Source of the DNA: Myxococcales bacterium
GTDB taxonomy: Bacteria; Myxococcota; Myxococcia; Myxococcales; UBA5297
Direction: 5' to 3'
DNA length: 64,000 nt
Assembly (NCBI GenBank): GCA_049841135.1
Contig: JASGHK010000008.1
Location: 19,272 to 83,271 of the forward strand
The position numbers and the translations under genes are program-made. Under the pieces are notes generated by a model. The model was not told where the DNA came from, did no database searches, and saw nothing but the letters and a program-made list of their open reading frames with translations. Positions 8,654-57,744 of this stretch are shown piece after piece. Numbering within the stretch: the first letter of the stretch is position 1; each line of letters begins with the position of its first letter.

Positions 8654-9586
8654 ATGCGCTCCTTCACCCTCGCCCTCCTGTTGGCCCTCGCGGCCGCAAC
8701 CGCCTGCGCCGCCGCCAAGCCTGCGCCTCCGCAGAAGACCGACTTCGACTGGTTCGACGACGAGCTCCAGCTGGGAGACATCCAGCGCGGGCGGGTCGAG
8801 CGCCTCACGCTTCGCGCGCGCGCTGGCGAATCGGAGCTGGCGCTCGCGGAGGCCCTCTTGCGAGCCGGCCAGGACTGCCAGGCACGAGCCGAAGACGTCG
8901 TCAGCCGCGCCGAGGAGCTGCGCACGAACCATCCCCGCGATGCGCGAGCGCCCGAGGCCTTCCGGCGGGCAGAGGAGGCCGCGACCAAACTGCGCCAGTC
9001 GGCGAGCGAGGCCGCTGCTGCGGCCGACGCCGTCTACCTCGCGAACTCCGCCAAGGAAGCCGAGCAGGCCACGCGCGCGGAGGAGCCCGCTCCGTCGCCA
9101 CCGCCTCCTCCGGCTCCGGCCCCCGAACCTGCGCCGGCGTCCCCCGCGCCGACGGGAGACAGCGACTTGCTCAACGCCGCGGCGGAACAGGCCGGCAGCG
9201 CGCTGGCGGCCAAGCTCGCCCGGCACAAGGCCCGGTCGGTGGTGGTCACGCCCGCAGCCACCTTGATTGGCGACGAGATGCCCAAGCTGGCGCTCGCCTA
9301 CAAGAACAAGGGCGGGCAGGCGGACGTGTATGGACGCGCCTTCGCGCGCGGGCTCGCCGCGGCGCTGGCCAAGGCAGGCTTCAAGGCCACTTTCTCCAGC
9401 GACGTCCGCGGCCAGCTGGCGTCCGCGCCGGGCAAGCCGCAAGCGGACGTGTCGGAGGTGCGCATCCTCGTCTACGGCGCGCTGGCGACCCTGCCGAACG
9501 AGTTCGCGGCGTGGGAGTTGCGCGCGGTGGACCTCAACAACGACGGAATCCTTGGCGAGACCCAGGGCGTTCGCCGCGCGCGCTGA
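8654..9586 (+). CDS. hypothetical lipoprotein with Pro-rich linker (paralog of the previous gene)
   Basis: MRSFTLALLLALAAATAC lipobox at ATG 8654. Conserved C-terminal block ...VVVTPAATLIG...FARGLAAALAKAGFKATFS. Confidence 0.5.
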   Translation: MRSFTLALLLALAAATACAAAKPAPPQKTDFDWFDDELQLGDIQRGRVERLTLRARAGESELALAEALLRAGQDCQARAEDVVSRAEELRTNHPRDARAPEAFRRAEEAATKLRQSASEAAAAADAVYLANSAKEAEQATRAEEPAPSPPPPPAPAPEPAPASPAPTGDSDLLNAAAEQAGSALAAKLARHKARSVVVTPAATLIGDEMPKLALAYKNKGGQADVYGRAFARGLAAALAKAGFKATFSSDVRGQLASAPGKPQADVSEVRILVYGALATLPNEFAAWELRAVDLNNDGILGETQGVRRAR

Positions 9587-9720
9587 GCCCCGTCACCTCG
9601 AGCCCGTCGAGGGGCCAGAGCCCGGCGAGGGGCCAGAGCTTGTCGAGGGCCGGAGTCTGGTCTTTGCTTCACCGTCGGCCAGGCCGGCGCCGACCGTCCA
9701 CGGACAGCAGGGAGGGTGCA

Positions 9721-11304
9721 ATGCGTCTGAGCCTCGTGGGAGCCGACTTCGAGGAGAACCTCGGCCTGGGGATGATCGCCGCGACCGCGCAGCAGGCGGG
9801 CCACTCGGTCGTCGTCCACCCCTTCAACGACGTGCGGCAGGCCCGTGAGGTCGCCCGGCGCATCGCCTCGGCCCGGCCCGAGCTGGTCGGGCTGAGCCTG
9901 CAGTTCCAGCACCGCGGTCACGAGTTCGTGGCCCTGGCGCGGGCGCTGCGCGAGGCGGGCTACCGCGGGCACCTGACCTGCGGCGGCATGCTCGCCTCGG
10001 CGGCCTGGCAGCAGGTCCTGGCCGAGAAGGCGTTCGACTCGGTCGTCCTCTACGAAGGCGAGCAGACGATCGTCGAGCTGGCCGGTGCGCTGGTCGCGGG
10101 GCGGCCGCTGGCGGAGGTCCCGGGCCTGGCGCTGCGCGACGAGCGGGGCGAGGCCGTGCGCACCGCCGACCGGGAGCGGCCGAGCGACCTCGACGCGCTG
10201 CCCTTCCCCACCCGCTACCGGCCGCCGACCCGGCACCTGGGCATCCCCTTCCTGCCCGTCCTCGGCTCGCGGGGCTGCTGGGGGCGCTGCACCTTCTGCT
10301 CCATCAGCTCCTTCCACCTCGAGGCGAGCGCGCACGGCGGCGGGCAGCTCTTCCGCCGGCGCAGCCCGGAGAACATCGCGCAGGAGATGGCGCTGCTCGC
10401 GGGCGACGGCCCTGCCCTCTTCTGCTTCCACGACGACAACTTCCTCCTGCCGAACCCCAAGCACTCGCTGAAGCGCGTGCAGGAGATCCGCGCGGCTTTC
10501 GACGAGCTCGCCCCTGGCCCCCTGGGCATCATCGGCAAGACGCGCCCGGAGTGCCTGACGGCCGAGCTGGCGAAGGAGCTGCGCGAGCTGGGCGTGGTGC
10601 GGCTCTACGTCGGCGTCGAGAACACCTCCGAGACCGGCGCCGAGCACCTGGCGCGCGGCACCCAGACCCGGCACGTGCACTCGGCGCTGGCCGCCTGCCG
10701 CGAGGCGGGCATCTTCGCCTGTTACAACCTGCTCGTCTTCGAGCCCAAGACGACGCTCGCCGACGTGAAACAGAACGTCGCCTTCATGCGCGAGCCTGCC
10801 GCGCCGAGGCCTACACCGGTACCCCGCTGCACCGCTCGCGTGCCTCGCGCGACGCGCTCACCGGCAGCTGGCTGGGCTGGAACTACCGGCTCGAGGACGA
10901 CCGGGCCGAGCTGCTCTTCCGCATCTGCGCGGCCGCCTTCCGCGAGCGCAACTTCGGCGCCGACGGCGTCGCCAACCGGTCGATGGGCCTGGGCTACTGC
11001 GGCCGGATCCTCGAGCACTTCTACCCGGAGGCGTCCGCCGAGGCGGCGAAGCTCTCGCGCCGCGCCGCGGACCTGACCCGGAACATCGTCCTGGAGACCG
11101 CGAGCTTCCTGGAGGAGGCCATCGCGCTCGCTGAGACGACGCCGCTCGCCGAGCGCGACGCCATCGAGCGGCAGACGGCGCTGCTGGGGCTGCGCATCGC
11201 ACAGGCGGACCAGCCCTGGCACGCGGCGATGGACGAGTTCCACGCCGACGCCGACGCGCTCGTCGCCTCACTGCAGGCGAGCCGGCCGAAGCCCGCGTCG
11301 TGGA
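9721..11304 (+). CDS. B12-binding radical SAM protein; apparent -1 frameshift near 10792-10800; stop not found before the next gene
   Basis: N-terminal cobalamin-binding domain (LVGLSLQF...). CxxxCxxC motif LGSRGCWGRCTFCSI. The reading frame changes after ...NVAFMRE and continues HARACRAEAYTGTPL... in frame 0. That frame runs without a stop into the lipoprotein-like ORF at 11305. Confidence 0.65.
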
Positions 11305-11972
11305 TGCGGGTGGCGCGGCGGGTGGCGCTGGGCGCGACCTTGGTGCTCGGCGGCACGTCCTCCTGCGAGTGCTACAGCGTCGACATGGTCCCCTACGATC
11401 CCGACGCGATGGTGGTCGACCCGGTGCCCGGCGACGCTGGGGCGACCGACGCGATGGTCGCCGACCCGCTCCCGCCCGACGCCGGCACCTCCGACGCGAT
11501 GGTTGCCGATCCGCTCCCGCCCGACGCCGGCGCCTCCGATGCGCTGGTCGCCGACCCGCTCCCGCCCGACGCTGGCAGCCCAGATGCGGGCATGGTGGCC
11601 GATCCGGCCCCGGAGGACGCAGGAATGGCGGTCGATCCACTCCCCGAGGACGGCGGCCACGCCGCCCGGGAACCGGCCGGCCAGTGGCGCGACTCCGCCA
11701 CCTACGCCTTGCGCTCGAACGACCTTCCGCTCTTCTGCCCGCCTGCGGTGCGGCTGTGCGCCGTGCGCGACGGCGAGACGGTCCGCGTCACCGTCCAGGG
11801 AGCGCCCGGCCCGCTCAGCACGCGCTGCGAGACCTCGGGCATCGTCGTCGGCGAGGGCCGGGAGCTGACCTGGACTCCGGCGTCGGCGGACGACTCGCTG
11901 CGCGTCGCCGTTCGTTCCGCGGGCGGCGTGGCGGTGGTCTCGCTGCGGGCCTGCGAGGTCAAAGCGAGCTGA
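11305..11972 (+). CDS. lipoprotein-like protein with 5 tandem 13-aa repeats (DAMVADPLPPDAG); possibly fused to the radical SAM gene
   Basis: MRVARRVALGATLVLGGTSSC signal/lipobox. Five 39-bp DNA repeats at 11392-11640. C-terminal Cys-containing domain. It is in-frame with the upstream gene and has no intervening stop. Confidence 0.4.
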
Positions 11973-12203
11973 GGCCCCAGTGCGCCACCGACATTCGGAT
12001 CGCTGAGATGCCCCAGGCGTGGAAGCCCGGCTCTACTCGTGCTATCTCCGCGCGCGACAGTACGAACTCAAGGCCGAAAAACGCAGCCCGGTTGGTAGCC
12101 CGGGCAACCGGCATCCCGCCGGCGCTGTAACCCTTCCTCCTCCGAGGACCGTCCGCGGCCGCGGCGCGCTCGCGATGCACTTCGCGAGCGACTCGGAGGA
12201 GTC

Positions 12204-12617
12204 ATGCGCGTGCGGCTGAGCGTTTTCTTCGATGGCAGTCTGTGGGTCGGCGTCTTCGAGCGTCGCGACGGCGAGTGCCTGAGCGTGGCGCGGGTGGTCT
12301 TCGGCGCGGAGCCTCGCGGCGTCGAGGTGCTGGACTTCATCCTCAAGGGCTACCCGGGTCGGGTCCGCTACGGCCTGGAGGTCGAGGACGCCAAGGGCCT
12401 GCCCGAACGGCCGAAGAATCCCAAGCGGGCACAGCGCGAGGCGCGACGGGCCATGGGCGCCGGCCTGGGCAAGAAGGCCTGGGAGGCGATGCGCATCGCG
12501 CGCGAGGCCGGCAAGGAGGAGCGCCGGGTGCGGAGCAAGGCGGAGAGAGAGGCGGAGGAGCAGCGCAAGTTCGAGCTGCGGCAGGAGAAACGAAAAGAGA
12601 AGCACCGAGGACACTGA
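12204..12617 (+). CDS. DUF2992 (YjdC-like) family protein
   Basis: RLSVFFDGSLWVGVFERRDGECLSVARVVFGAEP matches the DUF2992 N-terminus as I recall it. The C-terminal tail is KE-rich. Confidence 0.55.
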   Translation: MRVRLSVFFDGSLWVGVFERRDGECLSVARVVFGAEPRGVEVLDFILKGYPGRVRYGLEVEDAKGLPERPKNPKRAQREARRAMGAGLGKKAWEAMRIAREAGKEERRVRSKAEREAEEQRKFELRQEKRKEKHRGH

Positions 12618-12638
12618 ACGGAGCTGCCGGCCTCCGCG

Positions 12639-12920
12639 CCGGGGCATCTTTGAGATCCGAGCATCTGAGGCGCGCCGACGTGTAGTACCCGGCCTCTATG
12701 CGCCTCTATGCCGGGGACACCCTTGAGATCCGAGCATCTGAGGCGCGCGAGGACTGCCTGTCCTCGTCGTCAGCGAACCGTCTGGGTTGCTGAAGATAGA
12801 CATGCGTTTGGTGACATGAACTGAGCGCGCCACGGACGGGCAGATCGAGAGGGCGTCCGCGCGCCTCGGATGCTCGGATCTCAAAGGTGCCCCCGGCACG
12901 GAGGCCGGGTACTACACGTC
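12639..12920. repeat. composite intergenic repeat: 38-bp unit (ccggggcatctttgagatccgagcatctgaggcgcgc) in 2 direct and 1 inverted copies, plus a 21-bp inverted pair (cgacgtgtagtacccggcctc)
   Basis: Copies at 12639-12675, 12711-12749 and inverted at 12859-12896. The 21-mer lies at 12676-12696 and inverted at 12900-12920. A 110-bp AT-richer core lies at 12750-12858. Confidence 0.7.
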
Positions 12921-13056
12921 GCCGCGCAATCCATGTTGATGGGTACCGACATATCTTTAGCAGCGGGCGCGCGCGGTACTCCGCGGGTGACCGGTCACGA
13001 ACGGTATGCGACGATGCGCCTCGCATCGTTGCCCGCCCTGAAGGAGTCCAAGTCGC

Positions 13057-14538
13057 ATGGCTGACCGCTTCGACGTCGTGATCATCGGCGGCGGGGTCAT
13101 CGGCTGCGCCATCGCGCGCGAGCTGTCCCGCTACCGGCTGAAGGTCGTCCTGCTGGAGAAGAACGCCGAGGTCGGCTTCGGCACCAGCAAGACCAACAGC
13201 GGCATCATCCACCCCGGCCACGATACGCCGCTCTCCACGCTCAAGGGCCGGCTGGTCGTGCGCGGCAACGCGCTCTTCGACCAGCTCGTCTCGGAGCTGC
13301 ACTTCGGCTTCCGCCGCATCGGCGAGCTGAAGGTGGCGATGCAGCCCGAGGACCTGGAGACCTTGAAGAAGCTCAAGGCCCAGGGCGACGAGAAGGGCGT
13401 GCCGGGCCTGGAGCTGTGGGACGCGCCGCGGCTGCAGCGCGAGGAGCCCAACCTCTCCCGCGCGCTCCTCGGCGCGCTCTACGCGCCCTCGGCCGGCGTC
13501 ATCAACCCCTACGAGTTCGCCTTCGCGCTCATCGAGAACGCCCAGGACAACGGCGTCGAGCTGCGCGTCGACTCGCCCGTGACTGCCCTTGTCCCCGAGG
13601 ACGGCGGCATGGCGGTGCAGGTCGGCGGCAAGCAGGCCGGCACGGTCCACGGCCGCTTCGTCCTCAACTGCGCCGGCGTCGCCTCCGACCGGATCGCCGC
13701 GATGGTCGGCTGCGACACCTTCAAGATCACGCCGCGCAAGGGCGAGGAGTACATGCTCGACAAGCGGCTCAAGGGCCTGGTCCGCCGGCTGGTCTTCCCG
13801 GTGCCGACCAAGACCACCAAGGGCACGCTCGTCATCCCCACCTTCGACGGGACGCTGATGGTGGGGCCGACCGCGCACGACGTCGAGGACCGGGACGACT
13901 TCGCGACCACGCCGCGTGGCGCCGAGGAGGTCTTCTCCTTCGTCAAGAAGCTCTGCCCGGCCATCAGCTCGCGCGACGCCATCACCGCCTTCGCCGGCCT
14001 GCGCGCGGTCAGCGACACCGGAGACTTCGTCATCGGGCCGACCCGCGTGAAGGGCTTCTTCAACGTCGCCGGCGTGCAGTCCCCCGGGCTGACCAGCTCG
14101 CCGGCCATCGCCGAATACGTGCGCGACCTCCTGCGCGAGGCGGGCCTGTCGCTCGACTCCAAGCCGGACTTCGTCCCCACCATCGCCGGCCCGGCGCGCT
14201 TCGCCCAGCTCTCTCCCGAGGAGCAGGACAAGCTCGCCGCCAAGGACCCGGCCTTCGCCAAGGTCGTCTGCCGCTGCGAGATGGTGACCGAGGCGGAGAT
14301 CCACGAGGCCATCGACCACGGCGCGCGCACGCTGGACGGCATCAAGTTCCGCACCCGCGCCGGCATGGGGCGCTGCCAGGGCGGGTTCTGCACCTCGCGC
14401 TGCATGGAGATCCTCTCCAAGCGCCTGCTGATCCCCATCACCGAAGTGACCAAGCGCGGCGGCGACTCGTGGATCGTCCGGCCCATGGAGGACGAGGAGA
14501 CGAGCGCGGGGCAGGTCCGCTCGGCTGCCGGAGGCTGA
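13057..14538 (+). CDS. FAD-dependent oxidoreductase, GlpA-like (anaerobic glycerol-3-phosphate dehydrogenase family) with C-terminal BFD-like [2Fe-2S] domain
   Basis: N-terminal DVVIIGGGVIGCAIAREL dinucleotide-binding fold. C-terminal CRCEMVTEAEIHEAIDHGARTLDGIKFRTRAGMGRCQGGFC. Confidence 0.8.
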   Translation: MADRFDVVIIGGGVIGCAIARELSRYRLKVVLLEKNAEVGFGTSKTNSGIIHPGHDTPLSTLKGRLVVRGNALFDQLVSELHFGFRRIGELKVAMQPEDLETLKKLKAQGDEKGVPGLELWDAPRLQREEPNLSRALLGALYAPSAGVINPYEFAFALIENAQDNGVELRVDSPVTALVPEDGGMAVQVGGKQAGTVHGRFVLNCAGVASDRIAAMVGCDTFKITPRKGEEYMLDKRLKGLVRRLVFPVPTKTTKGTLVIPTFDGTLMVGPTAHDVEDRDDFATTPRGAEEVFSFVKKLCPAISSRDAITAFAGLRAVSDTGDFVIGPTRVKGFFNVAGVQSPGLTSSPAIAEYVRDLLREAGLSLDSKPDFVPTIAGPARFAQLSPEEQDKLAAKDPAFAKVVCRCEMVTEAEIHEAIDHGARTLDGIKFRTRAGMGRCQGGFCTSRCMEILSKRLLIPITEVTKRGGDSWIVRPMEDEETSAGQVRSAAGG

Positions 14539-17525: not shown

Positions 17526-19043
17526 TTGAGCCGCCTTGGACTCGCCTTCGCCGCTGCGGCGGCCGTCCTTGTCGCATCGGCACCGGCCTTCGCTGATTCG
17601 CCGCTGACCTCGATCGACCTCGCCGCCGGGTACGACGACCTCCCGGCGGTGAAGTCGGCGCGCGGCGCGCAGAAGCTCCACGGCTCGGCGCTCGAGTTCC
17701 TGACCTCCGCCAAGGCTCCCATGGACCAGCGCATCGCCGTGGCGTGCGCCTCCGGCTGGGGACGAGGCAACGGCGAGGCGCTCATCGAGGCGCTCGCGCT
17801 CTCGCACCAGAAGGAGCCCATCGCGCTCGAGGCCAAGGACCTGACGGCCGCCGAGAAGGTGCTGCTGGGCTACGTGCTCTCGCTGGACAAGTACCTCGAC
17901 CTCCAGCCGCTGCAGCCGGGGGCGAGCGGCGTGCGCGGCCTGCTACCCAAGAAGCTCCTCGACGAAGGCGCTGCGGCCTTCCCCGACGACTTCGCGGTTC
18001 AGTACGTCCGCGCGCTGGTGAGCGTCCAGGACCTGCCGGTGGAGAAGTGGTGCGACCTCTTCAAGGTGCCGCAGAAGGTGCTCGACCGTTTCCCGGCCGC
18101 CAAGCGCAACCTGCGGCCGGCCGCCATCCAGTCGGCGACCGAGTACCTCGCGCTCTATGAGAAGGAGTGCCCGGGGTCGAAGGCGGCGCTCGACGAGAAG
18201 CGCGCGGAGCTGAACCGAATCTACACGCTCGCCCGCGTCGGGCCGCACCTGGTCGCAGGGACGCAGGGCGGCGTCGTGGTGTGGGATCCCGCCTCGCCGG
18301 CCAAGCCCGTGGCTGTCCATCCCGAGTTCATCTGCAGCGCCGTCGCTTGGGGCGGCGCGGCGTGGGCCGGCTGCGACAAGTCGGTCGTCCGCTGGGACGG
18401 CAAGACCTTCAAGAGCTACCTCGCCAACAAGGCCAACGACGCCGCGTACTACCACCCGATGCAGGGCCCCGGCGGCGCGCTCTGGGTCCGCTACGGCGCG
18501 TCGACCTTCGAGTACGTGTCCTCCTCCGACACCTTCAAGCCAGTGCAGGCGCCGTGGTCGGGCGACGTCTACGACGCGCTGGTGACCCGGCAGGGCGAAG
18601 TCTGGTGGCTCGACTTCATGACGTCGTTCTCGAACCGCCAAAAGACCTTCCAGCTCGGCAGCGACGAGTACCCCGGCAAGGACCCGCGCCGCTTCCGCGA
18701 GGACGCGGCCGGCCGGCTCTGGGTGGAGGACTTCGAGACCGGGCTCTACCGGTTCGATCCGGCGGGCGGAAAGTTCCTGCGCGAGAGCGGCCTGGCGCAG
18801 AAGGGAACGGGCGTCGCCTTCGACCTGAAGACCGAGCGCCTCTGGATGCTGCACTACACCGAGGGGCCGTACCTGATGCTCAACGGGCGCGTGCAGCAGA
18901 CCTTCGACCTGCGCCAGGACGGCTACATGCGCGACCTGCTGCTCGACGAGGACGGCACGCTCTTCGTCGGTAGCCACTCGGGCGTGGTGCGGATGCGGGA
19001 GAAGGCCGGGAACTGGGTGATGGATCGGTTCCGGGTTCGCTAG
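17526..19043 (+). CDS. secreted beta-propeller-like hypothetical protein
   Basis: AGGAGG RBS 7 nt before TTG 17526. Signal peptide MSRLGLAFAAAAAVLVASAPAFA. The C-terminal half has W/Y-rich propeller-like repeats. The long in-frame ORF starts at 17286. Confidence 0.5.
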   Translation: MSRLGLAFAAAAAVLVASAPAFADSPLTSIDLAAGYDDLPAVKSARGAQKLHGSALEFLTSAKAPMDQRIAVACASGWGRGNGEALIEALALSHQKEPIALEAKDLTAAEKVLLGYVLSLDKYLDLQPLQPGASGVRGLLPKKLLDEGAAAFPDDFAVQYVRALVSVQDLPVEKWCDLFKVPQKVLDRFPAAKRNLRPAAIQSATEYLALYEKECPGSKAALDEKRAELNRIYTLARVGPHLVAGTQGGVVVWDPASPAKPVAVHPEFICSAVAWGGAAWAGCDKSVVRWDGKTFKSYLANKANDAAYYHPMQGPGGALWVRYGASTFEYVSSSDTFKPVQAPWSGDVYDALVTRQGEVWWLDFMTSFSNRQKTFQLGSDEYPGKDPRRFREDAAGRLWVEDFETGLYRFDPAGGKFLRESGLAQKGTGVAFDLKTERLWMLHYTEGPYLMLNGRVQQTFDLRQDGYMRDLLLDEDGTLFVGSHSGVVRMREKAGNWVMDRFRVR

Positions 19044-19140
19044 GCGGGCGGGCGGGACGCCCGCAACCACAGGGCCCTCCCGCCTCCTTCACTGGAGGCA
19101 GGGCAGGACAGGAGCTCAAGCCAGGCAAGAGCCGTGGCGG

Positions 19141-19228
19141 CTGAAGAGCTCCAACGTAGATCGCAACGACCAGAGACGAACCCCCTCCCGCAGTTGGGAG
19201 AGTTGGGAGGGGGCAGGGGGGAGGGCTC
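19141..19228. repeat. dispersed intergenic repeat copy (core ccccctcccgcagttggga)
   Basis: Shares a 60-80 bp core with the copies at 38290-38355 and 58025-58120. Confidence 0.6.
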
Positions 19229-21331
19229 CTACTGCAATGCCTTCTCCGTCGCCCTCAGCAGCGCCTCCGCGCCCACCGGCGCTCCCGTGGCGTTCTCCAT
19301 CCACAGGTCGGGCACCACCGTGCCGAACTTCGCCATCCGCTCGAACTCCACGCCCAGCGCCGGCACCGTCTTCATCTTCTCTTCGATTTGGAAGGCGATG
19401 AGGTGGCCCATCGGGTAGTCGGGCGTGTACATCGGGTAGGCGATGAGGTGCGAGTAGATGCCGAGCAGGACCGTGTCCTTGCCGCCCAGCACCGGCGCGT
19501 AGAACTGGTTCCAGACGTCCTTGGAGATCTGCACCACCGCTTCGCGCATCTGCGTCGCGGTCGCGGTCGGGTGGTCGTAGAGCCAGTGCCAGGTCCGCAC
19601 GTCGACCAGCGCCACGCCGGCGATCTCCCAGGTCATCCAGAAGCTGTTGAGCGCCGCCAGCTTCTCGGCCTCGGGGTCCGGCTTGGCCAGCCCCAGCAGC
19701 TCCAGGTCGCGCGCCTGGAAGACGAAGGCGAAGGCCTCGGTGAAGGCGGTGTTGGGCACCCCCTGCAGCAGCGTGTGGTCCACCTCGTAGAGCGAGATGA
19801 CCTGCTCGACGTTGTGGCCCAGCTCGTGGATGGCGATGTTGTAGCCCTTGTAGTCCATCCCGTCCTTGCCGATGCGCGTGCGCAGCCGCGGGAAGTCGCC
19901 GCGCCGCGTCGCCTGCATGGCGTGGCCGGAGCCGCGCGCCGGGTCGACTCGAATATGGTCGGCCAGGAACTGTGCCTTCTCCTTGGGGAAGCCCAGGTCA
20001 GTGAGGATGCGCGGGAGGTCCGCGGCGAACGCCTTGGCGTCCGGGTACTTCTTCTTGGTGATGGCGTCGAGCTCGGCCTCGCTGAACTTCCCACGCGGCT
20101 GGAAGCCGTTGTACCAGAGGTCGAACGGCTCGAGCTTGCGGCCGAGCCGCTTCTCGATGCGCGCGGCGACCTTGCCGGCGAGCGGCGAGGAGGTCACCTG
20201 CGTGAGCATCCCCACCACCCGCTCCTCGGGGATCTCGCGGCCCAGGTCGAAGCGCCGGGCGATGACCGTCGGCGAGACCGGGCAGTATGGGTCCGCCGCC
20301 TTGTTGGCCTGGAACTGCGCCAGCCACTTCGCATAGCGCCGGTCGGGCTCGGGCGTGGCCTCGGCCTTGGGCGCCGCCGTCTTGGGCGCGCCGTCCTCCA
20401 CCTCCGCCGCCGGCGCGAGCGCGACGGTGTTCGCCACCGGGTCCCAGTCGACCCGCGGATCGTTCACCACCGCCGCGGGGATGGTCTGGGTCACGATGCG
20501 CTGCATGACCTGGGCGAGCAGGCGCTGCTTGGCGAGGCCGCTCTTGGCGTCGGCGTAGTCGGCCTTGAGCTGGTCGCGCAGGTTCCAGTGCGAGAGCAGC
20601 CGCAGGCCCTTGGGGAAGAGCCGCTCGCCGGCGGGGTTCACGAGGTGGTGCGCCCAGACGTTGTACTCGGCGATGTAGAGGTCGGCCTCGGCGCCGACCC
20701 GGGAGATCTGCTGCTGCACCTCGCCGGGGATGCGGAAGGCGAAGCCGGCGGTCAGCCGCGCCTCGGCCCACTGGCGGCGCGTCCAGTCCTTGCCCGCCAG
20801 CCGCTCCTTGAGCGTGGTGAGCGGGAAGTTGAGGAGGACGTGGAAGGCGATCTTCGAGTCGAAGAGGTCGTCGGTCAGGTGCGCCGCCGGGTCGAGCGCG
20901 GAGAGCATCGGGTCCACGGAGAGCAGCGGGCCCTCGTCGACGTCGGTGGCCCAGCGCAGCGAGCGGCCGATCTCGTTGAAGGCGCCGCCGACCTGCTCGA
21001 AGGTCGCCTCCAGGCGGTCGAGCGTCGCGTCGAGCTGCTGGGGGTCGGCGATGAAGTTCTCCTGCACGAACGCCTTGAAGTCGCCGTCCTTCTCGCGCCA
21101 CAGCGCCGCCACCTGCTCGACGCCGCGCTCGATGCGCACGCGCTGCGCCTCGCCGTGCTTGGCGACCAGGGCCGCCTTGAGCTCTGCGCACTCCTTCTTG
21201 AGATCCATCGGTCCCTCCACTGCCTGGGCTTGCGGCTTGGCGTCGGACTTCACGCTGGGATTAGTCGAGCAGCAGGCGCCGAGCGAGAGCGCGCACGCCG
21301 AGAGGACGGCCATTCGTCGGGTCGAAGTCAT
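19229..21331 (-). CDS. zinc metallopeptidase-like lipoprotein (HEXXH: IAIHELGHNVEQ)
   Basis: MAVLSACALSLGACC lipobox. A single HELGH motif in a roughly 700 aa protein. The peptidase family is not assigned. Confidence 0.6.
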   Translation of the reverse strand: MTSTRRMAVLSACALSLGACCSTNPSVKSDAKPQAQAVEGPMDLKKECAELKAALVAKHGEAQRVRIERGVEQVAALWREKDGDFKAFVQENFIADPQQLDATLDRLEATFEQVGGAFNEIGRSLRWATDVDEGPLLSVDPMLSALDPAAHLTDDLFDSKIAFHVLLNFPLTTLKERLAGKDWTRRQWAEARLTAGFAFRIPGEVQQQISRVGAEADLYIAEYNVWAHHLVNPAGERLFPKGLRLLSHWNLRDQLKADYADAKSGLAKQRLLAQVMQRIVTQTIPAAVVNDPRVDWDPVANTVALAPAAEVEDGAPKTAAPKAEATPEPDRRYAKWLAQFQANKAADPYCPVSPTVIARRFDLGREIPEERVVGMLTQVTSSPLAGKVAARIEKRLGRKLEPFDLWYNGFQPRGKFSEAELDAITKKKYPDAKAFAADLPRILTDLGFPKEKAQFLADHIRVDPARGSGHAMQATRRGDFPRLRTRIGKDGMDYKGYNIAIHELGHNVEQVISLYEVDHTLLQGVPNTAFTEAFAFVFQARDLELLGLAKPDPEAEKLAALNSFWMTWEIAGVALVDVRTWHWLYDHPTATATQMREAVVQISKDVWNQFYAPVLGGKDTVLLGIYSHLIAYPMYTPDYPMGHLIAFQIEEKMKTVPALGVEFERMAKFGTVVPDLWMENATGAPVGAEALLRATEKALQ

Positions 21332-21421
21332 GGTGGGGTGAGATAGCCCCGACCGTGCGCCGCGGGCAAGCCTGGTTGCGTCGGGAGGGCGCGGTCACGA
21401 TTCGGCGGGCGCGCGGTCGCT

Positions 21422-21627
21422 GCCGGCGGCTGAAGCCGCGCCTGACGTTGCCAAGCCTGCCTTCGCAGGCTGGGTGGTCAACGGATTCGAAAGCACCGGA
21501 AGGGAGACACGGCCCAAGCGCTCCAGCACACCGTTGCCGTTCATCCCGGCTGGCGCCTTCAGGTCCAACTCCCACCCAGCCCGCGAAGGCGGGCTTCGTA
21601 ATGTCAGGCGCGGCTTCAGCCGCCGGC
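21422..21627. repeat. 206-bp inverted-repeat element (56-bp arms, 51/56 identical, about 96-bp spacer), each arm with an internal hairpin
   Basis: Arm 21422-21476 is the reverse complement of arm 21573-21627 with 5 mismatches. Internal hairpins gcctgc-cttc-gcaggc and gcccgc-gaag-gcgggc. It lies about 90-300 nt upstream of the metallopeptidase start. Confidence 0.7.
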
Positions 21628-21659
21628 ACTGCGCGGACCGGGTCGCTTCTCCTCGCCCC

Positions 21660-38472: not shown

Positions 38473-41400
38473 CTACTGCACCCGGATGGTGAAGGACCCG
38501 GTCAGGGTCGAGGAGTAGGAGTCCACGTAGAGGTAGTACGTGGTGCCCGCCGCGCCGTTGATGGTGAGCGTCTCGGCGCCGCTGTACGAGGCATCCGAAG
38601 CGTTGACGCAGGTCGAGCCGGTGCCGCCGCAGGTGGTGGTGGTGTACCAGACGGCCACGTCCCAGGAGGCCGGCGTCACCGTCACCGTGAAGTTGCCGGC
38701 GGCGGTCGGCGTGTAGCTGTAGACGACCTCCTTACCCGGCGCGTTGTAGTCGCCCATGCCCGCGTAGCACGTGCTCGACAGGCTCGAGCCGTAGTCCGCG
38801 ACCGCCAGCGCGGTGTCTCCGGACACCGTGGTGCCCAGCGTGAGCGGGATGGCGTTGGCGCCGTCGGTGCCGCAGGCGTCGTTGGCCGGCGGGTCCATGG
38901 TCACGAGATCCAGCTTGTACGCACCGGCGGAGCTCGAGTACCCGTCGACCCACACGTAGTAGGTGGTGTTGGCCGTCGGGGCGGTGAGCGTCACGGAGGC
39001 GATGGTGCCCGCCGCGTTGCTTGTGCCGGCGCTGGAGTTGTACGTGCAGGCGACCTGCGCGGCGGCGGCAGTGTCCGAGCAGGCCGAGCGCACGTAGACC
39101 AGCGGCTTGAGCGAGCCGGTGTTCGACGCGGTCAGGGTCACCTTCACCGGCTTCGGCGTCGCGCCGGAGTTGAAGGAGTAGACGACGTCCCCGCCCGTCG
39201 TGCTCGACGTGCAGCCGCTGGTGGGCAGCGTGGTGGCGTCGGCGCCCAGCGTGTTCCCCGTCACGGAGATGGGGCCGGCGGTGACGTCGCCCAGGTCCTG
39301 GGCGCTCGTGCACGCGTCGTTGGCCGGGGCGTCGACCGGGATCAGGTCCAGCTTGTAGCCACCGATCGCCGAGCTGTAGCCGTCCACCCACACGTAGTAC
39401 GGCGTGTTGGCGGTCATCCCGGTCACGGGGATGCCCACCGTCCCGCCTGCGGTGCTCGAGTAGTCGCAGGCGACCTGGGCGGTGGCGGTCTCGTCGGCGC
39501 AGGCCTTGCGGACATACACCAGCGGCTTGAAGTCCTGCGTGGTGCTGCTGAGCAGGACCTGCACGCCCTTCGGCGTCGCTCCGGAGTTGAAGGAGTAGAC
39601 GACGTCCGCGCCGGTGGTGCTCGAGGTGCAGCTGGTGGTCGGCAGCGTCGAGGCGTTGGCGAGGTAGGTGTACCCCGACGCCGTCAGCGGCCCGGCGCTC
39701 ACGTCGCCCAGGTCCTGGGCGGTGGCGCACACGTCGTTGGTGGGCGGCAGGATTGGCGCCCCCGTCTTCAGCTCCAGCGTGAACTTGCCGTAGCTGCTGG
39801 CCAGGCCGTCGACGACCACGAAGTACTGGCCGGCGGCGAGGTTGTAGGCGGTGGCGGCGACCGCCACCGTGCTGCTGCTCTTGGCGCACGCCTTCTCGTC
39901 CGCCGAAGCCGGACTGGCGCAGTTGCTGCGCAGGTAGACCGCCGGCTGCCAGCCCGTCGCCGACGCGTCTGGCGTCACCTTGGCCACCACGGAGGCCGCC
40001 GCGGAGAGGCTGAAGGTGTAGACCACGTCGCTGCCGGTCATGGTCACGCCGGTGCCGCCGCAGGTGCCGCTGTAGTCGTCGAAGGCGGCCGAGGTGTCCC
40101 CAATCACCGTGGCCTGTCCCGAGCCGGCGGTCAGCGCCGCGGTCAGGTCGTGGACACCGCCGGAGGTGACCGCCGAGCAGAGGTCGTTGGCGGGCGGAGC
40201 CGGGGGATCGGCCAGGGTCACGGTGAGGGTGAACGGCCCCTTGGAGGTGCTGTACCCGTCGGCCCAGAGGTAGTAGGTGCCCGCGGGGAGGCGCCGGTAG
40301 CTGAAGGCCGCGGGGGTTGCCCCGCTGCTCTCCTTGCAGGCCAGCTCGTCGGCGGCGGCGACGGTGGTGCACTGGCCCTTGCGCAGGTAGACCACCGCGG
40401 TGTTGGTGGTGGTGGCGAAGGCCATGCTCACCTGCAGGTCCTTCACGGCGCTGGTCGTCAGCTCGTAGACGAGGTCGTTGCCCAGGCCGGTCCCGCAGCT
40501 GCCGACGCTGCCGCCGTTGGTCTTGGCGCTGGTGGTGTCGCCGTTGAGGACCACCGTGCCGTTGCCGGCGGCGTCAAACCCGGCGATGGCGCTGGGGTTG
40601 CTGCAGTCCTCGTTGGTGATCGTCCCCACCGCGGCGCCGGTGACCTCCAGCTTGAAGGCGCCGGTGGTGCCGCCGGTGCCGTCGACCAGCACGAAGTAGG
40701 TGCCGGCCGGCAGGTACTCGGCGGTGGCGGTGACCGCGGTCCCGGCGGTGGTGGTGGAGGCGCAGGCGCGCTCGCCGTTGCCGGTGCCCGGGCAGCTGGC
40801 GCGGATGTAGACGCCGGGGGCCAGGGTGGTCGGCGCCACCGGGGTCACCTTGGCGGTCACCTTCTGCGGCGCGGCCAGGGTGAAGGAGTAGACGAGGTCC
40901 GCCCCGGTCATCGCCGCGCAGGCGCCGGTGAGGTCGTCGGTGGCGTACCAGGTCTCGGCCTCGGCGGTGGCGGTGGTGCCGTCGACCGCGCCCAGGTCGA
41001 AGGTCCCGGAGGCGCCGGCGCAGACGTCGTTGGCCGGAGCCGCCGGGCTGTCGGTGACGGTCACCTCCAGCGCCACCGGCCCCCGGTCCGTGCTGGAGAA
41101 GGCGTCGACGTAGACGTAGTAGCGGCCGGCGGGCTGCTTGCGCGCGGTGGCCGTGGCGGTGGTGAGGCCCGTGCCGGCCAGGGCGCAGGCCACCTCGTTG
41201 GCGTTGTCCGTCACTCCGCTGTTGCAGGCCTTGCGGATGTAGACGTTGGGGCGCCAGGTGCCGCTGGCCAGGGTGACCTTGGCCGCGAGGTCCTTGTAGC
41301 CGCCGGCCGGCAGGTCCACGGCGTAGACCAGAATCCGGACCCGAGGAGGTGTTGCAGGAGCCGTTGGTGTCGCCGACGGCCAAGGCGGTGTCGGCGTTGA

Positions 41401-44400
41401 CCGTCACCGTCCCGTTGCCGTCGGGGCCGAAGCCGGTGAGGGCCTTGGCCATGGCGCAGGTCTCGGGCAGCGTGTCCTGCGCGCTCAGATCGAGCTTGAA
41501 GGCGCCGGAGGTGGCGGCGTTGCCGTCCACCACGAGGAAGTAGGTGCCGGCAGGCAGGGCCGCGGCGATGGCCGTGGCGGTGCTCGGGGTGCCCGAGCCG
41601 CTGGCGCAGGCGCGCTCCTCGGCGGCCAGGCCCGGGCAGGCGCCGCGCAGGTAGACGTTGGGCACCAGGGTGGAGCCGGTGTCGGCCGCCACCTTGGCCA
41701 CCACGAGCTGGGTCTTGGTGGTGGTGAACTGGAAGACCACGTCACCGCCGGTGCCGGTGCCGCAGCTGCCCACGGAGTCGCTGGCCGCGCCGACCGTGGT
41801 CGCCGAGACCGTCGGAACGGCCACGCCGTCCACGGTGCCCAGGTCCACGGCCGCGGTGCACTGGTCGTTGGCCGGCACGGGCGGCAGGGCCGCCGAGTCG
41901 GTCACCGTGACCACGAGGCTGAAGGGACCGGAGTGCGAGGTGCTGTAGCCGTCGACCCAGATGAAGTAGCGGCCGGCGGGCAGCCGGGTCGCCGCGGCCG
42001 TGACGTTGTAGACGCCCGTGCCGGCAACCGCGCAGGCCAGCTGGTCCGCCGCCGCCGCCGAGGCGCAGCTCTTGCGGATGTAGACGTTGGGCCGGTAGCT
42101 GCCGGTGAAGGTCATCTTCGCGGAGACGTCCTTGGTCTTGCCCGCCGGAACGTCCAGCGCGTAGACGAGGTCGTAGCCCGAGGCGGAATTGCAGGTGCCG
42201 TCGCCCGAGCCGGTGGCGGTCGCGGTGGTGTCGTTGACGGTCACCGCGCCATTGCCCTCGGCGTCGAAGCCGGTCAGCGCCAGCGGCGAGGCGCAGTCGT
42301 CGCCCGTGCGGCCCACGGCCGAGCCGGTGACGGTGAGGCTGAACTTGCCCGCGGTCTTGGAGCGGCCGTCGACGATCACGTAGTAGGTCCCGGCCGGGAG
42401 CGTCTGCAGGGTGGCCGTCGCCGCGCCGCCGCCCGTGGTGGCCGTGGCGCAGCCGAGGTCCTCGGCGGTGGTGCCGGGGCAGGCGGTCCGGACGTACACC
42501 GAGGGGTAGTACGTCGTCTGGCCGCTGTCCGGGGTGACCTTGGCCACCACCTTCTGCGCGCTGTTGAGGGTGAAGGTGTAGACCAGGTCGCCGCCGTCGT
42601 GCGGGTAGGTCGCCGTGGCGCAGCCGCCCGCGGTGTCGTTGAGGGCGTTGGTCGTGTCCTGAGCAGCCTGGGTCAGCGTCACGCCGTCGGCGATGCCCAG
42701 GTCGATGGCGCCGGCGCACGCGTCGTTCGCGGGCGGCGGGACGATCACCGTGTCGGCCAGCGTGACCGTGAGCGTGAAGGCCCCCTTGTGCGAGGTGCTG
42801 TACGAGTCGGCGTACACGTAGTAGCGGCCCGCCGGCAGCTTCTTGGGCGAGACGGTGATGGTGTTGACGCCGGAGGCCGCAGAGCCGCAGCCGACCTCGT
42901 TGGCCGAGTCGGTCACGACCGCCGTGCAGGCCTTGCGGACGTACAGGACGGGCCGGTTGGTGGTGGAGGTGAAGGCCATCACCGCCGTGACGTCCTTGGT
43001 CATCCCCGCCGGGACGTCGAAGGAGTAGACGAGGTCGGGGCCGGTGGCGCTCTCGCACGAGCCGTCGGTCTCGGTGGTGTTGCTGGTGGTGTCGCCGTTG
43101 GCGGTGGCGGTGCCGTTGCCGCTGGCGTCGAAGCCGGTCAGGGGAAGGGCTGCCATGCAGGTCTCGCCCGCGGTGAGCGTGACGGCGGTCAGGTCGAGCT
43201 TGAAGGCGCCGGCGGTGCCGGCGAAGCCGTCGACCACGGCGTAGTAGGTCCCGGCCGGCAGGACCGCCGAGGTGGTGGCGGTGCCGCCGACGGCGGTGGC
43301 GGCCTTGCAGGAGGCCTCATCGGCGGCGAGCGGGCTGGCGCACGCCTTTCGCAGGTAGACCACCGGGCGGAAGGTCGAAGTGGTGGTGCTCAGCGCCGCG
43401 GTGACGGTGGCCGGCGCGGTGAGGGTGAAGGCGTAGACGAAGTCGGGGCTCGAGTCGCCGCCGCAGCTGCCGACCGAGTCGTTGGCCGCGCCGACGAGCG
43501 TGCCGCTGACGCTGGCCGCACCGGCGGTGAAGGCCAGCTCGAGCGCGGGCGAGCAGGTGTCGGCATTGCCGCAGGCGCTGCCGGCGCCGCACACGCCGCT
43601 CTTGCAGTCGCTGGCGGCCAGGCACTCGACGCAGGCCTGGGACGGGTTGCACAGGTGCTTGGCCCCGGCCGTGCAGTCGGCGTCCGCCAGGCACTCCACG
43701 CAGGTCTGGGCGGTGTTGCACTTGGGCGCCCCGGCGGCGGTGCAGTGGGCGTCGGTGACGCAGTTCACGCAGCCGTGGGCGGCCACGTCGCAGACCGGCT
43801 TGCCGGCGACGGTGGCGCAGCCGCTGTCGGAATCGCAGCCGCTCTTGCAGGTCGACACCACCGTGTCGCAGTACTCGAGCGCGCCGCAGTCGGCGGTCGC
43901 CAGACACTGGACGCAGCTCTTGCTGGGGTTGTCGCAGCGGGTGAGCCCGGGCGTCGTGCAGTCGGTGTCGGCGAGGCAGCCCACGCAGGTGTGGACCGGC
44001 ACTTCGCACACCGGCAGGGCGGCGGTGCAGCCGGCGTTGTCGTCGCAGCCGGCGTGGCAGGTCTTGGCCGCCGTGTCGCACCAGCTGTCCGCGGCGCAGT
44101 CGGCGGTGCTCAGGCAGGCGACGCAGGCCTTGGCCGCGGTGTCGCACTTCTTGTCGGCGCCGGTGCAGTCGAGGTCGGCGAGGCAGCCCACGCAGGTGTG
44201 GGTCGGGATCTCGCAGACGGGCTTGCCGGTCACCGTGGCGCAGCCGGCGTTGGCGTCGCAGCCCGGCTGGCAGGCCTTGGCCGCCGTGTCACACCAGTTG
44301 CCCGCGCCGCAGTCGGAGGTGGCCAGGCACCCCACGCAGCTGTTGGTGGCCGAGTCGCACTTCTTCGCCGTCCCGGTGCACTGCGTGTCGTTGAGGCAGG

Positions 44401-45436
44401 CGACGCAGGCGTGGGCCGCGACGTCGCACACCGGCTTGCCGCTCACGCCGGCGCAGTCGGCGCTCTCGCCGCACCCGGGCTGGCAGAGGTGGACCGCGGT
44501 GTCGCAGTAGTGGCCCGCGGCGCAGTCGGCGGTGGCCAGGCACGCCACGCAGACCTTGTTGGCGGGGTCGCACTTCTTGTCGGCGCCGGTGCAGTTGGCG
44601 TCGGACAGGCAGGTGACGCAGGTGCCGGCGGCGGTGTCGCACAGCGGCTTGCCCGCCACGTTGGCGCAGTCGGCGTCGCCGGCGCAGCCCGCCTTGCAGC
44701 GGTGGTCGGTGCTGTCGCAGTAGGCGCCCTGGCCGCAGTCGGCCTTGGCCAGGCACTCGACGCAGACCTTGGCGGCCGCGTTGCACTTGGGCGTCGTCCC
44801 GCCGCAGTCGCCGTCGGCGAGGCAGGCCACGCAGGCGTGGGCCGCGGTGTCACAGACCGGCTTGCCGGCGACACCGGCACAGTCGTCGCTCTCGTTGCAG
44901 CCCGGCTTGCACGCCCTGGCGTCGCAGTAGTTGCCCGCGGCGCAGTCGCTGGTCGCAAGGCACGCCACGCAGGCCTTGGCGTCGGGGTCGCAGCGCTTGG
45001 TGTCGCCGGTGCAGTCGCCGTCGAGCAGGCAGCCCACGCAGGTGTTGGTGGTGGTGTCGCACAGCGGCTTGCCGGTGACCGTGGCGCAGCCGGCGTTGTC
45101 CTGGCAGCCCGCCTTGCAGTGGAAGCTCGAGTCGCAGAAGGTGCCGTCGCCGCAGGTGGCGCACGGGGTTCCGCACCCGTTGTCGCCGCACTCCTTGCCG
45201 AAGCACTGGGGAACGCAGGTGTCGGTGCAGGTGTTGTTGGTGGTGTCGCAGGTCTGGTTGGCGCCGCAGCACGTCGTGCCGCAGGGCTTGGCGCAGCCGG
45301 CGTCGGGTTTCACCGCGGCGTCGGGTTTCACCGAAGCGTCCTGCGCGACGTTGGCGTCGGGGGTGAGTTCGATCTCTTCGGGACAACCAGCGAGGAGCAA
45401 GGCGGCCAGGAGGCCGATGCGAGTCAGCAGTTTCAT
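38473..45436 (-). CDS. giant (about 2,320 aa) cell-surface lipoprotein: about 12 Cys-rich 45-aa repeats followed by about 14 repeated beta-sandwich (PPC-like) domains; apparent +1 frameshift near 41331
   Basis: GGAGG RBS. MKLLTRIGLLAALLLAGC lipobox at 45436. Repeats of ...CD.A...CV.CL...DC......CD......C..GC. The repeated module is roughly 145 aa. After ...NTSSGPD the frame shifts and continues LVYAVDLPAGGYKDL. An extra T in gatt explains the shift. Confidence 0.75.
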
Positions 45437-45960
45437 TCGTCCCCTCCAGAGGGAGACAGGTTTTAGGTTCGCGCCAGCATACGGCACTGTCGTTCCAGCA
45501 CAAACCCCAGCCGCGAACATCGGCCTGCGAGACCGGATCGGCGGCGTGGACGGGCGCCCCGAGTGGATCCCCGGCGAAGGGCTGGAAGTGGAGCTCACCT
45601 ATACGGTGACGGTCCGCCCGCGACCGCCATCACGACCCGAATGGGGAAGCAGAACGGGCGTTGCGCCCGCGAGCCGGTGGTGGTCTCACCGGCCGCCGGT
45701 ACCGCTCGCGCAACGCGGCGAAGCCGGCCCCTACGGATGAGCGTGGATGCGTTCAGCCGCACGGTTGGCCGTCGCCGCGATGGGCAGCAGCGGGTTGACG
45801 CTGTGCTGCCGTCGACGATGACTAGCCAGCCAAAGCGCCACCGACGGCATGGCGCCCATGGCCTACGGCAAACCGTCCGCCTGGGCGACCACGACGTGAA
45901 CCTCACCGCGCTCGTCCTTAAGAGCCGCTCGAAGCCGAAGCTCGCGGGCGTGGCATCGGC

Positions 45961-46300
45961 ACCCCGTCCACCATGTCCACTCCGTCCACCCGGTCCACTC
46001 CGTCCGCCCACGTGCTCTTACTCGGCCCCATTCGTGGCGTGCGTGGCGTGCGTGGCGTGCGTGGCGTGCGTGGCGGTGCGTGGCGGTGCGTGGCGTGCGT
46101 GGCGTGCGTGGCGTTGCGGTGCGGGCGGTGCGCGCGCGCGCGCGGGCGCGCGGCAGTCGCGGCAGTCGCGGCAGTCGCGAAAGGAATGTCGGCCCCAGAC
46201 GCTAGAGTGCCCGACAGTGGTGGACGGTGTGGACGGTGTGGACGGTGTGGACGGTGTCGACGGTGTGGACCTTTGACGGGGTCCCCGAGGGGATCCCACG
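45961..46300. repeat. cluster of 9-bp-period microsatellites: (tccac[tc]c[cg]g)x4, (gtggcgtgc)x9, (gc)n, (gcggcagtc)x3, (gtggacggt)x6
   Basis: Direct reading of 45971-46010, 46034-46115, 46126-46150, 46151-46178 and 46217-46270. The first and last blocks are roughly inverted relative to each other. Confidence 0.75.
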
Positions 46301-52009: not shown

Positions 52010-53323
52010 ATGACGGAGCTCGCGATCTTTGGGGGCAAGCCTGCAGTGCGCGCAGAGGACCACGTGCGCTGGCCGGTCCTCGGTCAGGAGGATCGCGAGG
52101 CGGTCCTGCGCGTCCTCGACCGCGGCGTGCTCTCCGGCCCGTTCGCACCCGAGGTCCGCGCGCTCGAGTCCGAGTGGGCCAAGTACCTGGGCAGCAAGTG
52201 GTGCCTGGCCACCAACAGCGGCACCGCCGCCATCCACATGGCCATGGCCGCCGCCGGCATCGGCCCGGGCGACGAGGTGATCGTCCCGGCGTTCACCTTC
52301 GTGGCCACCGCCCTCGCCGTGCTCCACCAGGGCGCGGTGCCGGTCTTCGTCGACGTCGAAGAGAAGACCTTCGGCATGGACCCCGCGCAGGTCGAGAAGG
52401 CCATCACCCGGAGGACCAAGGCGGTGATGCCGGTGCACCTGCACGGCACGCCCTGCGACATCGACGCCATCGCCGCGCTCTGCAAGAAGCACAACCTGCT
52501 GCTCATCGAGGACGCGGCGCAGGCGCACGGCAGCACGCACGCCGGCAAGAAGGTGGGCACCATCGGCGCCATCGGCTGCTTCAGCGTGCAGTCGTCCAAG
52601 AGCCTCGCCGCGGGCGAAGGCGGCCTGTTGGTCACCGACAGCGAGGCTCTGTGGGAGCAGGCCAACCGCACCCGCATGTTCGGCGAGAACGTGAAGGCGG
52701 GCGACGAGTCCGGCTACAACCTCCAGCGCGCCCTCGACGGCAACCGCGCCTACGACTCGCTGGGCATGGGCTGGATGTACCGGACCACCGAGCTGTCCGC
52801 CGCCGTCTGCCGCGCGCAGCTCGGCAAGCTCGACAAGTTCAACGCCCAGGCGCAGGCCAACGCCGCGCTCCTGAACAAGCACCTGAAGGAGCTGCCCGGC
52901 GTCACCCCGCCCGAGCCGCGAGCCGGCGACACCAGCTGCTACCACAAGTACCGCGTGGTCCTGGACCCGAAGAAGGCGGGCGTCGACGCGCCGCCCAAGA
53001 AGGTCCGCGACGCGCTCAAGGCGGCGCTCGTCGCCGAGGGCTTGGAGGCGGTGCTCTGGCAGACCCAGCCCGTGCCGGGCCAGGGCCTGTTCAAGAACAA
53101 GGCGGGCTTCGGTGGCCGGGCGTTCCCGTTCGACCAGTCGCCGCAGGTCAACTACGACCTGGGCCAGTTCCCGACGACCACGCGGCTGCTCGACTCGTCG
53201 ATCGTGCTCTTCTCGCACACCTGCCCCATCGCGCCGCAGCCGACGAAGCTGGTCGAGGCCTACGCCGAGACCTTCACCCGCGTCTGGAAGCGCCTGGGCG
53301 ACGTGGTGGCCAAGGCGAAGTAG
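52010..53323 (+). CDS. DegT/DnrJ/EryC1/StrS-family PLP-dependent aminotransferase
   Basis: GPFAPEVRALESEWAKYLGSKWCLATNSGTAAIHMA...FSVQSSKSLAAGEGG with the family PLP-Lys context. Confidence 0.85.
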   Translation: MTELAIFGGKPAVRAEDHVRWPVLGQEDREAVLRVLDRGVLSGPFAPEVRALESEWAKYLGSKWCLATNSGTAAIHMAMAAAGIGPGDEVIVPAFTFVATALAVLHQGAVPVFVDVEEKTFGMDPAQVEKAITRRTKAVMPVHLHGTPCDIDAIAALCKKHNLLLIEDAAQAHGSTHAGKKVGTIGAIGCFSVQSSKSLAAGEGGLLVTDSEALWEQANRTRMFGENVKAGDESGYNLQRALDGNRAYDSLGMGWMYRTTELSAAVCRAQLGKLDKFNAQAQANAALLNKHLKELPGVTPPEPRAGDTSCYHKYRVVLDPKKAGVDAPPKKVRDALKAALVAEGLEAVLWQTQPVPGQGLFKNKAGFGGRAFPFDQSPQVNYDLGQFPTTTRLLDSSIVLFSHTCPIAPQPTKLVEAYAETFTRVWKRLGDVVAKAK

Positions 53324-53339
53324 CGGCCCTCCCCCTACT

Positions 53340-53460
53340 CCTCCCCCCTCCCCGACCTTCAACCTGCGGGAGGGGCGTTCGTCCCGCGGCTTCGGCTGTC
53401 TTGGTCGGAGCTGCTCGGACTCCTCGGATCGCCGGCCTTGTGCCGGAAAGCACTCTGAGC
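53340..53460. repeat. dispersed intergenic repeat copy (caacctgcgggaggggcgttcgtcccgcggcttcggc...ggtcggagctgctc)
   Basis: About 85% identical over about 75 bp to 57765-57840. Confidence 0.65.
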
Positions 53461-53589
53461 GACCACCGACGGGCTGTCTGTCCTGCCCTATCCAGTGGAT
53501 GGAGGAGGACCCTGTGGTTGCGGGCGTCCCGCCCGCGCGCCCGCGCACGGGGCCGCCTCGGCTCTCGCAACGCCTCGGGAGATGCACTC

Positions 53590-57738: not shown

Positions 57739-57744
57739 GCAGCC

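Follow-up and report, generated by a model that had tools for sequence, protein, structure and literature searches.

A foldback repeat element, possibly MITE-like, between yjdF and an oxidoreductase operon in an uncultured Myxococcales bacterium

Main finding

The intergenic region between a yjdF (DUF2992) gene and a downstream FAD oxidoreductase operon carries a long imperfect inverted repeat within a 64 kb stretch of Myxococcales DNA (the whole of this stretch is referred to below as the window). In our judgement, held with confidence that is about evenly balanced, the repeat is a lineage-specific, MITE-like, non-coding foldback element, that is, selfish or neutral DNA, probably from a small family. 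The element consists of arms of 70-80 nt around a 108-nt spacer, with a partial tandem copy of the arm adjoining it and an older, diverged copy lying across yjdF. The features referred to in the text are the following (coordinates of the window).

11973-12036, minus strand: U0, diverged fourth copy of the repeat unit (nhmmer with a profile of the three other units, E = 4.7e-5)
12065-12172, plus strand: yjdF (azaaromatic) riboswitch aptamer (Rfam RF01764, 40.2 bits with a gathering score of 45, E = 1.1e-5)
12204-12617, plus strand: yjdF / DUF2992 gene (Pfam PF11208, E = 3.3e-39)
12627-12680, plus strand: U1, partial direct copy of the unit, lacking the outer GTGTAGTAC part (repeat search and profile alignment)
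12670-12749, plus strand: U2, left arm, comprising the 21-mer, a 10-nt tandem duplication and the 38-mer (arm-to-arm alignment)
12750-12857, no strand assigned: spacer or core, with no notable ORF, promoter match or RNA-family match
12858-12927, minus strand: U3, right arm (inverted pairs with U1 and U2; arm-to-arm alignment)
13057-14538: FAD oxidoreductase gene, downstream flank of the element

Results

Repeat anatomy

A repeat search of the window bore out the initial annotation in its description of a 38-bp unit that is present twice directly (12641-12675 and 12714-12748, 91% identity) and once inverted (12854-12893); three overlapping inverted pairs were recovered together with the direct pair. 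Allowing one mismatch, three occurrences of the 26-nt core of this unit, TTGAGATCCGAGCATCYGAGGCGCGC, were counted, the number expected from 100 shuffles being 0.00. The second unit that had been described, a 21-mer (CGACGTGTAGTACCCGGCCTC), was likewise located once directly (12676-12696) and once inverted (12901-12921). When the arms were aligned with each other, the 21-mer and the 38-mer were found to adjoin as parts of one arm of 70-80 nt, and the architecture formerly called composite collapses to a single long imperfect inverted repeat of 258 bp (12670-12927). The "swapped order" of the two units is thus present, but it is nothing special, since any inverted repeat shows it for adjacent parts of an arm.

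The arms (12670-12749 and 12858-12927) are about 90% complementary, leaving aside one 10-nt indel; besides this indel they differ by seven substitutions, all of which are transitions. The left arm contains a 10-nt tandem duplication (GCCTCTATGC at 12692-12701 and again at 12702-12711). Read directly from the alignment, the substitutions give rise to G-U pairs and to mismatches about equally on either strand, and this absence of strand bias is what would be expected from neutral drift, not from selection on an RNA. The spacer (12750-12857) measures 108 nt, close to the core of roughly 110 bp first reported, and its GC content is indeed lower than that of the window, but only moderately so (0.60 overall and 0.54 in the central 57 nt, 12773-12829, compared with 0.71). 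Its edges (the outer 20-25 nt or so on each side) pair imperfectly, and the central part, 12773-12829, is unpaired.

U1 and U2 form a head-to-tail tandem with a start-to-start spacing of 73 nt, and U1 can take the place of U2 as the pairing partner of U3, so that two mutually exclusive pairings are available (U1 with U3, 93%; U2 with U3, 90%). The first six nucleotides of the right arm (GCGCGG) match those at the tail of the unit before U2. Because the terminal GCGCGC is self-complementary, it may belong to the arm or represent a target-site duplication. Folding of the region, which had been proposed as a check, gave a very stable structure for 12618-12935 on the plus strand (-200.6 kcal/mol, z = -12.4) and on the minus strand (-197.9 kcal/mol, z = -11.4). 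Such extreme folding on both strands follows from the inverted repeat at the DNA level and is uninformative as to which strand, if any, matters. Outside the repeat, between its right end and the conserved leader of the operon, lies the most AT-rich piece of the region (12928-12962, GC 0.40, aatccatgttgatgggtaccgacatatctttagca).

Fourth copy of the unit and bracketing of yjdF

The diverged copy U0, detected with the profile of the other three units, was recovered independently by the repeat search as a 33-nt inverted pair (11982-12014 with 12641-12673, 76% complementary). Its identity to the other three units amounts to 58-67% (about 65%). U0 begins directly past the stop codon of a radical-SAM gene, the C-terminus of which is conserved with its homologue in the related locus L133 to the last residues, and it ends 3 nt short of a -10-like box, TGCTATCT, with which the sequence common to other yjdF loci opens. 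From left to right, the features are thus U0 (minus), the yjdF cassette, U1 (plus), U2 (plus), the core and U3 (minus), the yjdF riboswitch and the DUF2992 gene being bracketed by the repeat units U0 (minus) and U1 (plus).

The riboswitch scores just under the gathering score of its family, so that it would be missed by a standard annotation run. It is homologous to the leaders of the DUF2992 genes in L081, L082, L083 and L085, and the L085 leader, at 48.9 bits, lies above the gathering score. The protein encoded by the gene differs from MGC4121976.1 (YjdF family protein, Myxococcales MAG) only in the choice of start codon. Both flanking genes are those named in the initial annotation, the DUF2992 gene at 12204-12617 and the FAD oxidoreductase gene at 13057-14538. 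A genomic-island signal was sought and rejected, the GC and GC3 values of the flanking genes being typical of the window.

The B12-binding radical-SAM gene upstream of U0 (9511-11972, plus strand) is interrupted, giving two ORFs that overlap and differ in frame, with the break near 10797-10840; both halves align end to end with a single protein of 747 amino acids in L133. Either the frameshift is real, which would make the gene a pseudogene, or the metagenome-assembled genome (MAG) contains a sequencing error. Three to four tandem 45-bp (15-codon) repeats encoding a motif of the DAMVADPLPPDAG type are present in the C-terminal half of the gene (11401-11580, plus strand).

Coding, RNA and regulatory signals

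The element is neither a known RNA nor coding. A search of 12618-12960 against Rfam 15 returned zero matches even at E = 10, and a scan of the whole window gave no match at gathering score. The ORFs that cross the element gave no Pfam match even at E = 1, in agreement with the earlier statement that no CDS accounts for it. These ORFs merely mirror the repeats in translation and are artefacts; the peptide LRSEHLRRA, previously assigned to both strands, is read on the plus strand, and the minus strand gives the nearly identical LRSEHPRRA.

A consensus scan of 11900-13100 revealed no sigma-70-like promoter on either strand, and no terminator-like site was detected within the element. The stem is followed by AATCCATGTTGATGG and not by a U tract, and the element is not an intrinsic terminator. 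The same scan found no other terminator between yjdF and the downstream gene on the same strand. With no Rfam, promoter-like or terminator-like match in the element, the small-RNA gene that had been put forward as one possible identity finds no support.

Relatives and the variable slot

Four related loci have the same oxidoreductase operon with neither the element nor yjdF upstream of it: L001 (92%), L131 (90%), L133 (85%) and L002 (82%), the values being identities of the oxidoreductase protein. Nucleotide homology upstream of the operon begins at about 12988 or later, and the relatives keep only this proximal leader; by eye, a weaker similarity to L001 may extend back to about 12960. No comparable palindrome was found at the same position in these relatives, nor do they offer a clean empty site by which the ends of the element could be defined, the whole block including yjdF being missing. 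The regulatory cruciform considered in the initial annotation is accordingly left without support as a conserved regulatory element. That annotation had also named a unique, untranscribed and unconserved element as the outcome that would speak against it; of these points, the lack of conservation was shown in the relatives examined.

Relatives differ in what occupies the slot that separates the radical-SAM gene from the oxidoreductase operon. In L133 the radical-SAM gene is followed by a gene with an fn3 domain instead of yjdF, and in L001, the closest relative, a deletion has reduced the radical-SAM gene to a 63-bp remnant (L001 5818-5880, corresponding to 11082-11145 of the window) in an intergenic stretch of 116 bp. 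The slot upstream of the operon is a hotspot of gain and loss. At yjdF loci with 69% and 58% identity the riboswitch is kept, and neither the units nor any flanking inverted repeats are present; a link of the repeat to yjdF itself was rejected on this ground. Missing from the relatives and from the other yjdF loci, the element is not a conserved leader of the oxidoreductase operon, and it does not belong integrally to the yjdF module.

A small hairpin, GCGACGATGC-GCCTC-GCATCGTTGC, at 13008-13032 (plus strand) closely precedes the ribosome-binding site of the oxidoreductase gene. L001 and L131 retain it with changes that for the most part leave pairing intact, and it may serve the operon as an operator or a leader structure.

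Searches for further copies

No further copy of the unit, the arm or the core was found elsewhere in the 64-kb window, and the element was not detected in about 1 Mb of sequence (133 loci) from relatives and metagenomes. An exact 23-mer of the conserved core gave 0 matches in 185,579 species-representative genomes and 0 matches in the JGI metagenomes. A degenerate 28-nt pattern made of the positions that are invariant in all four copies had 44 metagenome matches; in each of them nhmmer covers only the pattern itself, and all were rejected as chance matches. A closely related degenerate pattern gave 0 matches in viral contigs, and blastn with the complete element found none in plasmids or phages. 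These searches exclude a widespread, well-conserved family and are compatible with a family that is confined to the source species.

No transposase, integrase, recombinase or RAYT-type (HUH/Y1) domain was identified among the 38 window ORFs scanned, 10 of which are without a Pfam match. No target-site duplication is visible, the flanks (...CATCTGAG and AATCCATG...) showing no direct repeat. The GGGGWSAS motif of terminal inverted repeats that flank tyrosine transposase genes fits U2 only and was treated as a coincidence. In the searchable literature, no description of REP- or MITE-type repeats in uncultured Myxococcales was found.

Other repeats in the window

A dispersed intergenic repeat family occupies four sites (19043-19233, 53316-53545, 57743-57827 and 58025-58092), with about 70-220 bp per copy and with the common sequences GGCGGGACGCCCGCAACCACAGGG and CCCCTCCCGCAGTTGGGA..GGGG. 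The two longer copies directly follow gene stops, and the last two sites form an inverted pair around roughly 200 bp; the family is absent from the loci of the relatives. An imperfect palindrome of about 208 bp (21421-21628), with 93-nt arms (77% complementary), a 22-nt loop and GCCGGCGGCTGAAGCCGCGCCTGAC ends, is flanked by two minus-strand genes. One or two very large ORFs with many internal repeats (periods of about 213 and 844 bp) span 38473-45598 on the minus strand, where Pfam detects only a weak galactose-binding-like (T9SS-associated) domain; short 9-bp tandem arrays of the CCGTCCACN and GTGCGTGGC types are found at 45954-46132, upstream of the giant repeat-protein gene.

Discussion

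Origin of the element

The MITE-like reading draws on the presence of an old copy (U0) next to young ones (U1-U3) and on the other repeat families of the window. A copy of about 65% identity in the neighbouring intergenic region points to copies of different ages, as in a repeat family, and the other intergenic families within the same 64 kb indicate that the genome does carry such elements. Of the likeness to MITEs suggested in the initial annotation, the long terminal inverted repeats, the length of 258 bp and the non-coding character were found, whereas a target-site duplication, dispersed copies and a transposase in the window were not seen. Against the MITE-like reading stands the result that no second locus is known from the window, the 133 loci, the representative genomes or the JGI metagenomes. 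If the reading holds, the units would have spread by transposition or by recombination between copies instead of arising on the spot, and the element would have no dedicated function.

The main rival is a purely local origin, which we regard as possible but distinctly less probable. It would start from a tandem duplication after yjdF (U1-U2, 73-nt period, with the 10-nt slip added later), followed by the formation of an inverted copy through template switching during replication, and the resulting quasi-palindrome would be neither mobile nor functional. Every high-identity copy lies within 300 bp, no copy was found elsewhere in the collections searched (window, 133 loci, representative genomes and JGI metagenomes), no target-site duplication is visible, and the 10-nt tandem duplication shows that the region is prone to slippage. 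The GCGCGG at the start of the right arm is expected if 12670-12749 was copied as a block, and these six nucleotides of the preceding unit's tail make a local inverted duplication of the tandem simpler than an insertion. However, U0 is located 600 bp away, inverted and across a gene, and would call for a further, much older event; the other dispersed repeat families of the same window also speak against a local origin. A third account, that the units are ends of foldback MITEs which carried the yjdF cassette (riboswitch and gene) into the slot, is given a low probability. In that case the left element (U0) would be truncated and the right one (U1-U2-core-U3) complete, and they would enclose a minimal cassette that opens with the -10 box and closes with the stop codon. 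Also weighed was the proposal that the repeat is a foldback chimera made during assembly; the window does come from a MAG, and the adjacent radical-SAM gene has an apparent frameshift. Artefactual foldbacks are near-identical, whereas these arms are separated by seven substitutions as well as the 10-nt indel, and U0 has an identity of only about 65%, a divergence that argues against an assembly foldback and makes this the least credible of the explanations.

Among the accounts that assign the repeat a function or a dedicated mobility, a functional structured RNA appears unlikely. It could be a stabiliser or terminator in the 3' untranslated region of yjdF, an insulator or attenuator of the oxidoreductase operon, or a small RNA from the core, with U1 and U2 competing for U3. 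The extremely stable fold on either strand, the two mutually exclusive pairings (93% for U1-U3 and 90% for U2-U3) and the position between two same-strand genes with no other terminator are in keeping with such a role, but the relatives run the same operon without the element and keep only the leader from about 12988, other yjdF loci also lack it, and it shows no U tract after the stem, no Rfam match and no strand bias in the substitutions of its arms. Somewhat less probable again is a REP or REPIN, in which each unit would present a GTAG-tagged GC hairpin to a RAYT (REP-associated tyrosine) transposase and the head-to-head U2-U3 dimer would move as one unit. GTAG, two nucleotides and a 6-bp GC stem closed by a loop of 6 nt are indeed found in U0 and U3, the loop is enlarged in U2, U1 is without the GTAG tag, and the stem persists in U0 through a change from C-G to G-T. 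The format and the dimer nomenclature are as for GTAG repeats (PMC3733652), and the position downstream of a gene and between same-strand genes is typical. Nevertheless, GTAG- or GTGG-tagged hairpins occur at chance frequency in this window of 71% GC (115 observed, shuffle mean 94), the small hairpins are no better than those of shuffles (z = -1.16, +0.22, +0.19 and -0.07), and the predicted minimum-energy fold omits them in U0 and U1. In addition, the 63-nt unit is mostly non-palindromic, the hairpins stand about 170 bp apart instead of the usual 20-100 bp (PMC3733652), and no RAYT domain was found among the window ORFs scanned; REP membership was rejected on the shuffle control and the test of hairpin stability. 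Very little probability is attached to an inverton, in which the inverted repeats would act as recombination sites and flipping of a promoter in the spacer would switch the oxidoreductase operon. The repeats do surround a short AT-richer segment just upstream of the operon, and a weak TTCATG-N16-TATCTT motif can be picked out by eye on the minus strand of the core; the consensus scan nevertheless finds no promoter, no invertase or recombinase domain was found in the window, the relatives are without the element, and an invertible segment of 108 nt would be very short.

Consequences and significance

The element is probably transcribed as the 3' tail of yjdF because no terminator lies between the two. 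As a very stable RNA hairpin it could stop 3' exonucleases or hamper read-through into the operon that follows, effects that have been described for REP/ERIC-type repeats. Any such effect on the host would be incidental, whether the origin is MITE-like or local.

Taken alone, the element is of little importance, being one more small palindromic repeat in the poorly studied uncultured Myxococcales. It does mark a place in the chromosome where genes come and go between close relatives, and for annotation the ORFs called over it should be treated as artefacts. Should the units prove to have carried the yjdF cassette, the block would be a composite element without a transposase that moves a ligand-sensing detoxification module between myxobacterial genomes. 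If the units also flanked other cargo in the full genome, they would show how a riboswitch-controlled gene moves without a linked transposase.

Comparison with known systems

Like invertons, the element has a short AT-richer segment that is enclosed by inverted repeats and precedes an operon. It differs from them in that no promoter was found in the spacer and no recombinase in the window, and in its far longer arms, those of known invertons being much shorter than 70-80 nt. MITE-composite transposons are pairs of MITEs that mobilise a passenger gene, as exemplified by the Tn3-derived TIME-COMP elements and by MITE-flanked integrons. The tight bracketing of a minimal yjdF cassette by the inverted units U0 and U1 and the absence of the whole block from relatives are reminiscent of such transposons; on the other hand, identity between the flanking copies reaches only about 65%, one of the flanks has just a single arm, the block was not found a second time in the collections searched, and the nearest yjdF homologues (69% identity) are without such flanks.

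GTAG-tagged REPs carry an unpaired GTAG beside a stem, and their inverted dimers, 20-100 bp apart, form a larger hairpin (Di Nocera et al. 2013, PMC3733652). The outer ends of the arms, with GTAG, a dinucleotide and a 6-bp GC stem, resemble those dimers or REPINs (PMC3733652), as do the head-to-head arrangement of U2 and U3 into one large hairpin and the location downstream of an ORF between same-strand genes. In contrast to REPINs, the tagged hairpin is neither enriched nor more stable than chance, the 63-nt unit is mostly non-palindromic, and the hairpins are about 170 bp apart.

With respect to MITEs, the element is set apart by its unusually long arms (70-80 nt), by the tandem duplication of one arm, and by the want of a visible target-site duplication and of a second full copy or parent insertion sequence in the window and the collections searched. 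MITEs and other intergenic repeats built as imperfect palindromes include the Correia/NEMIS repeats of Neisseria and the ERIC/IRU repeats of enterobacteria. Like these, the element is small (258 bp, with an upper limit of about 500 bp for the class), non-coding and intergenic within a probable transcript; its terminal inverted repeats can fold the whole of it into one hairpin, and its presence varies between relatives.
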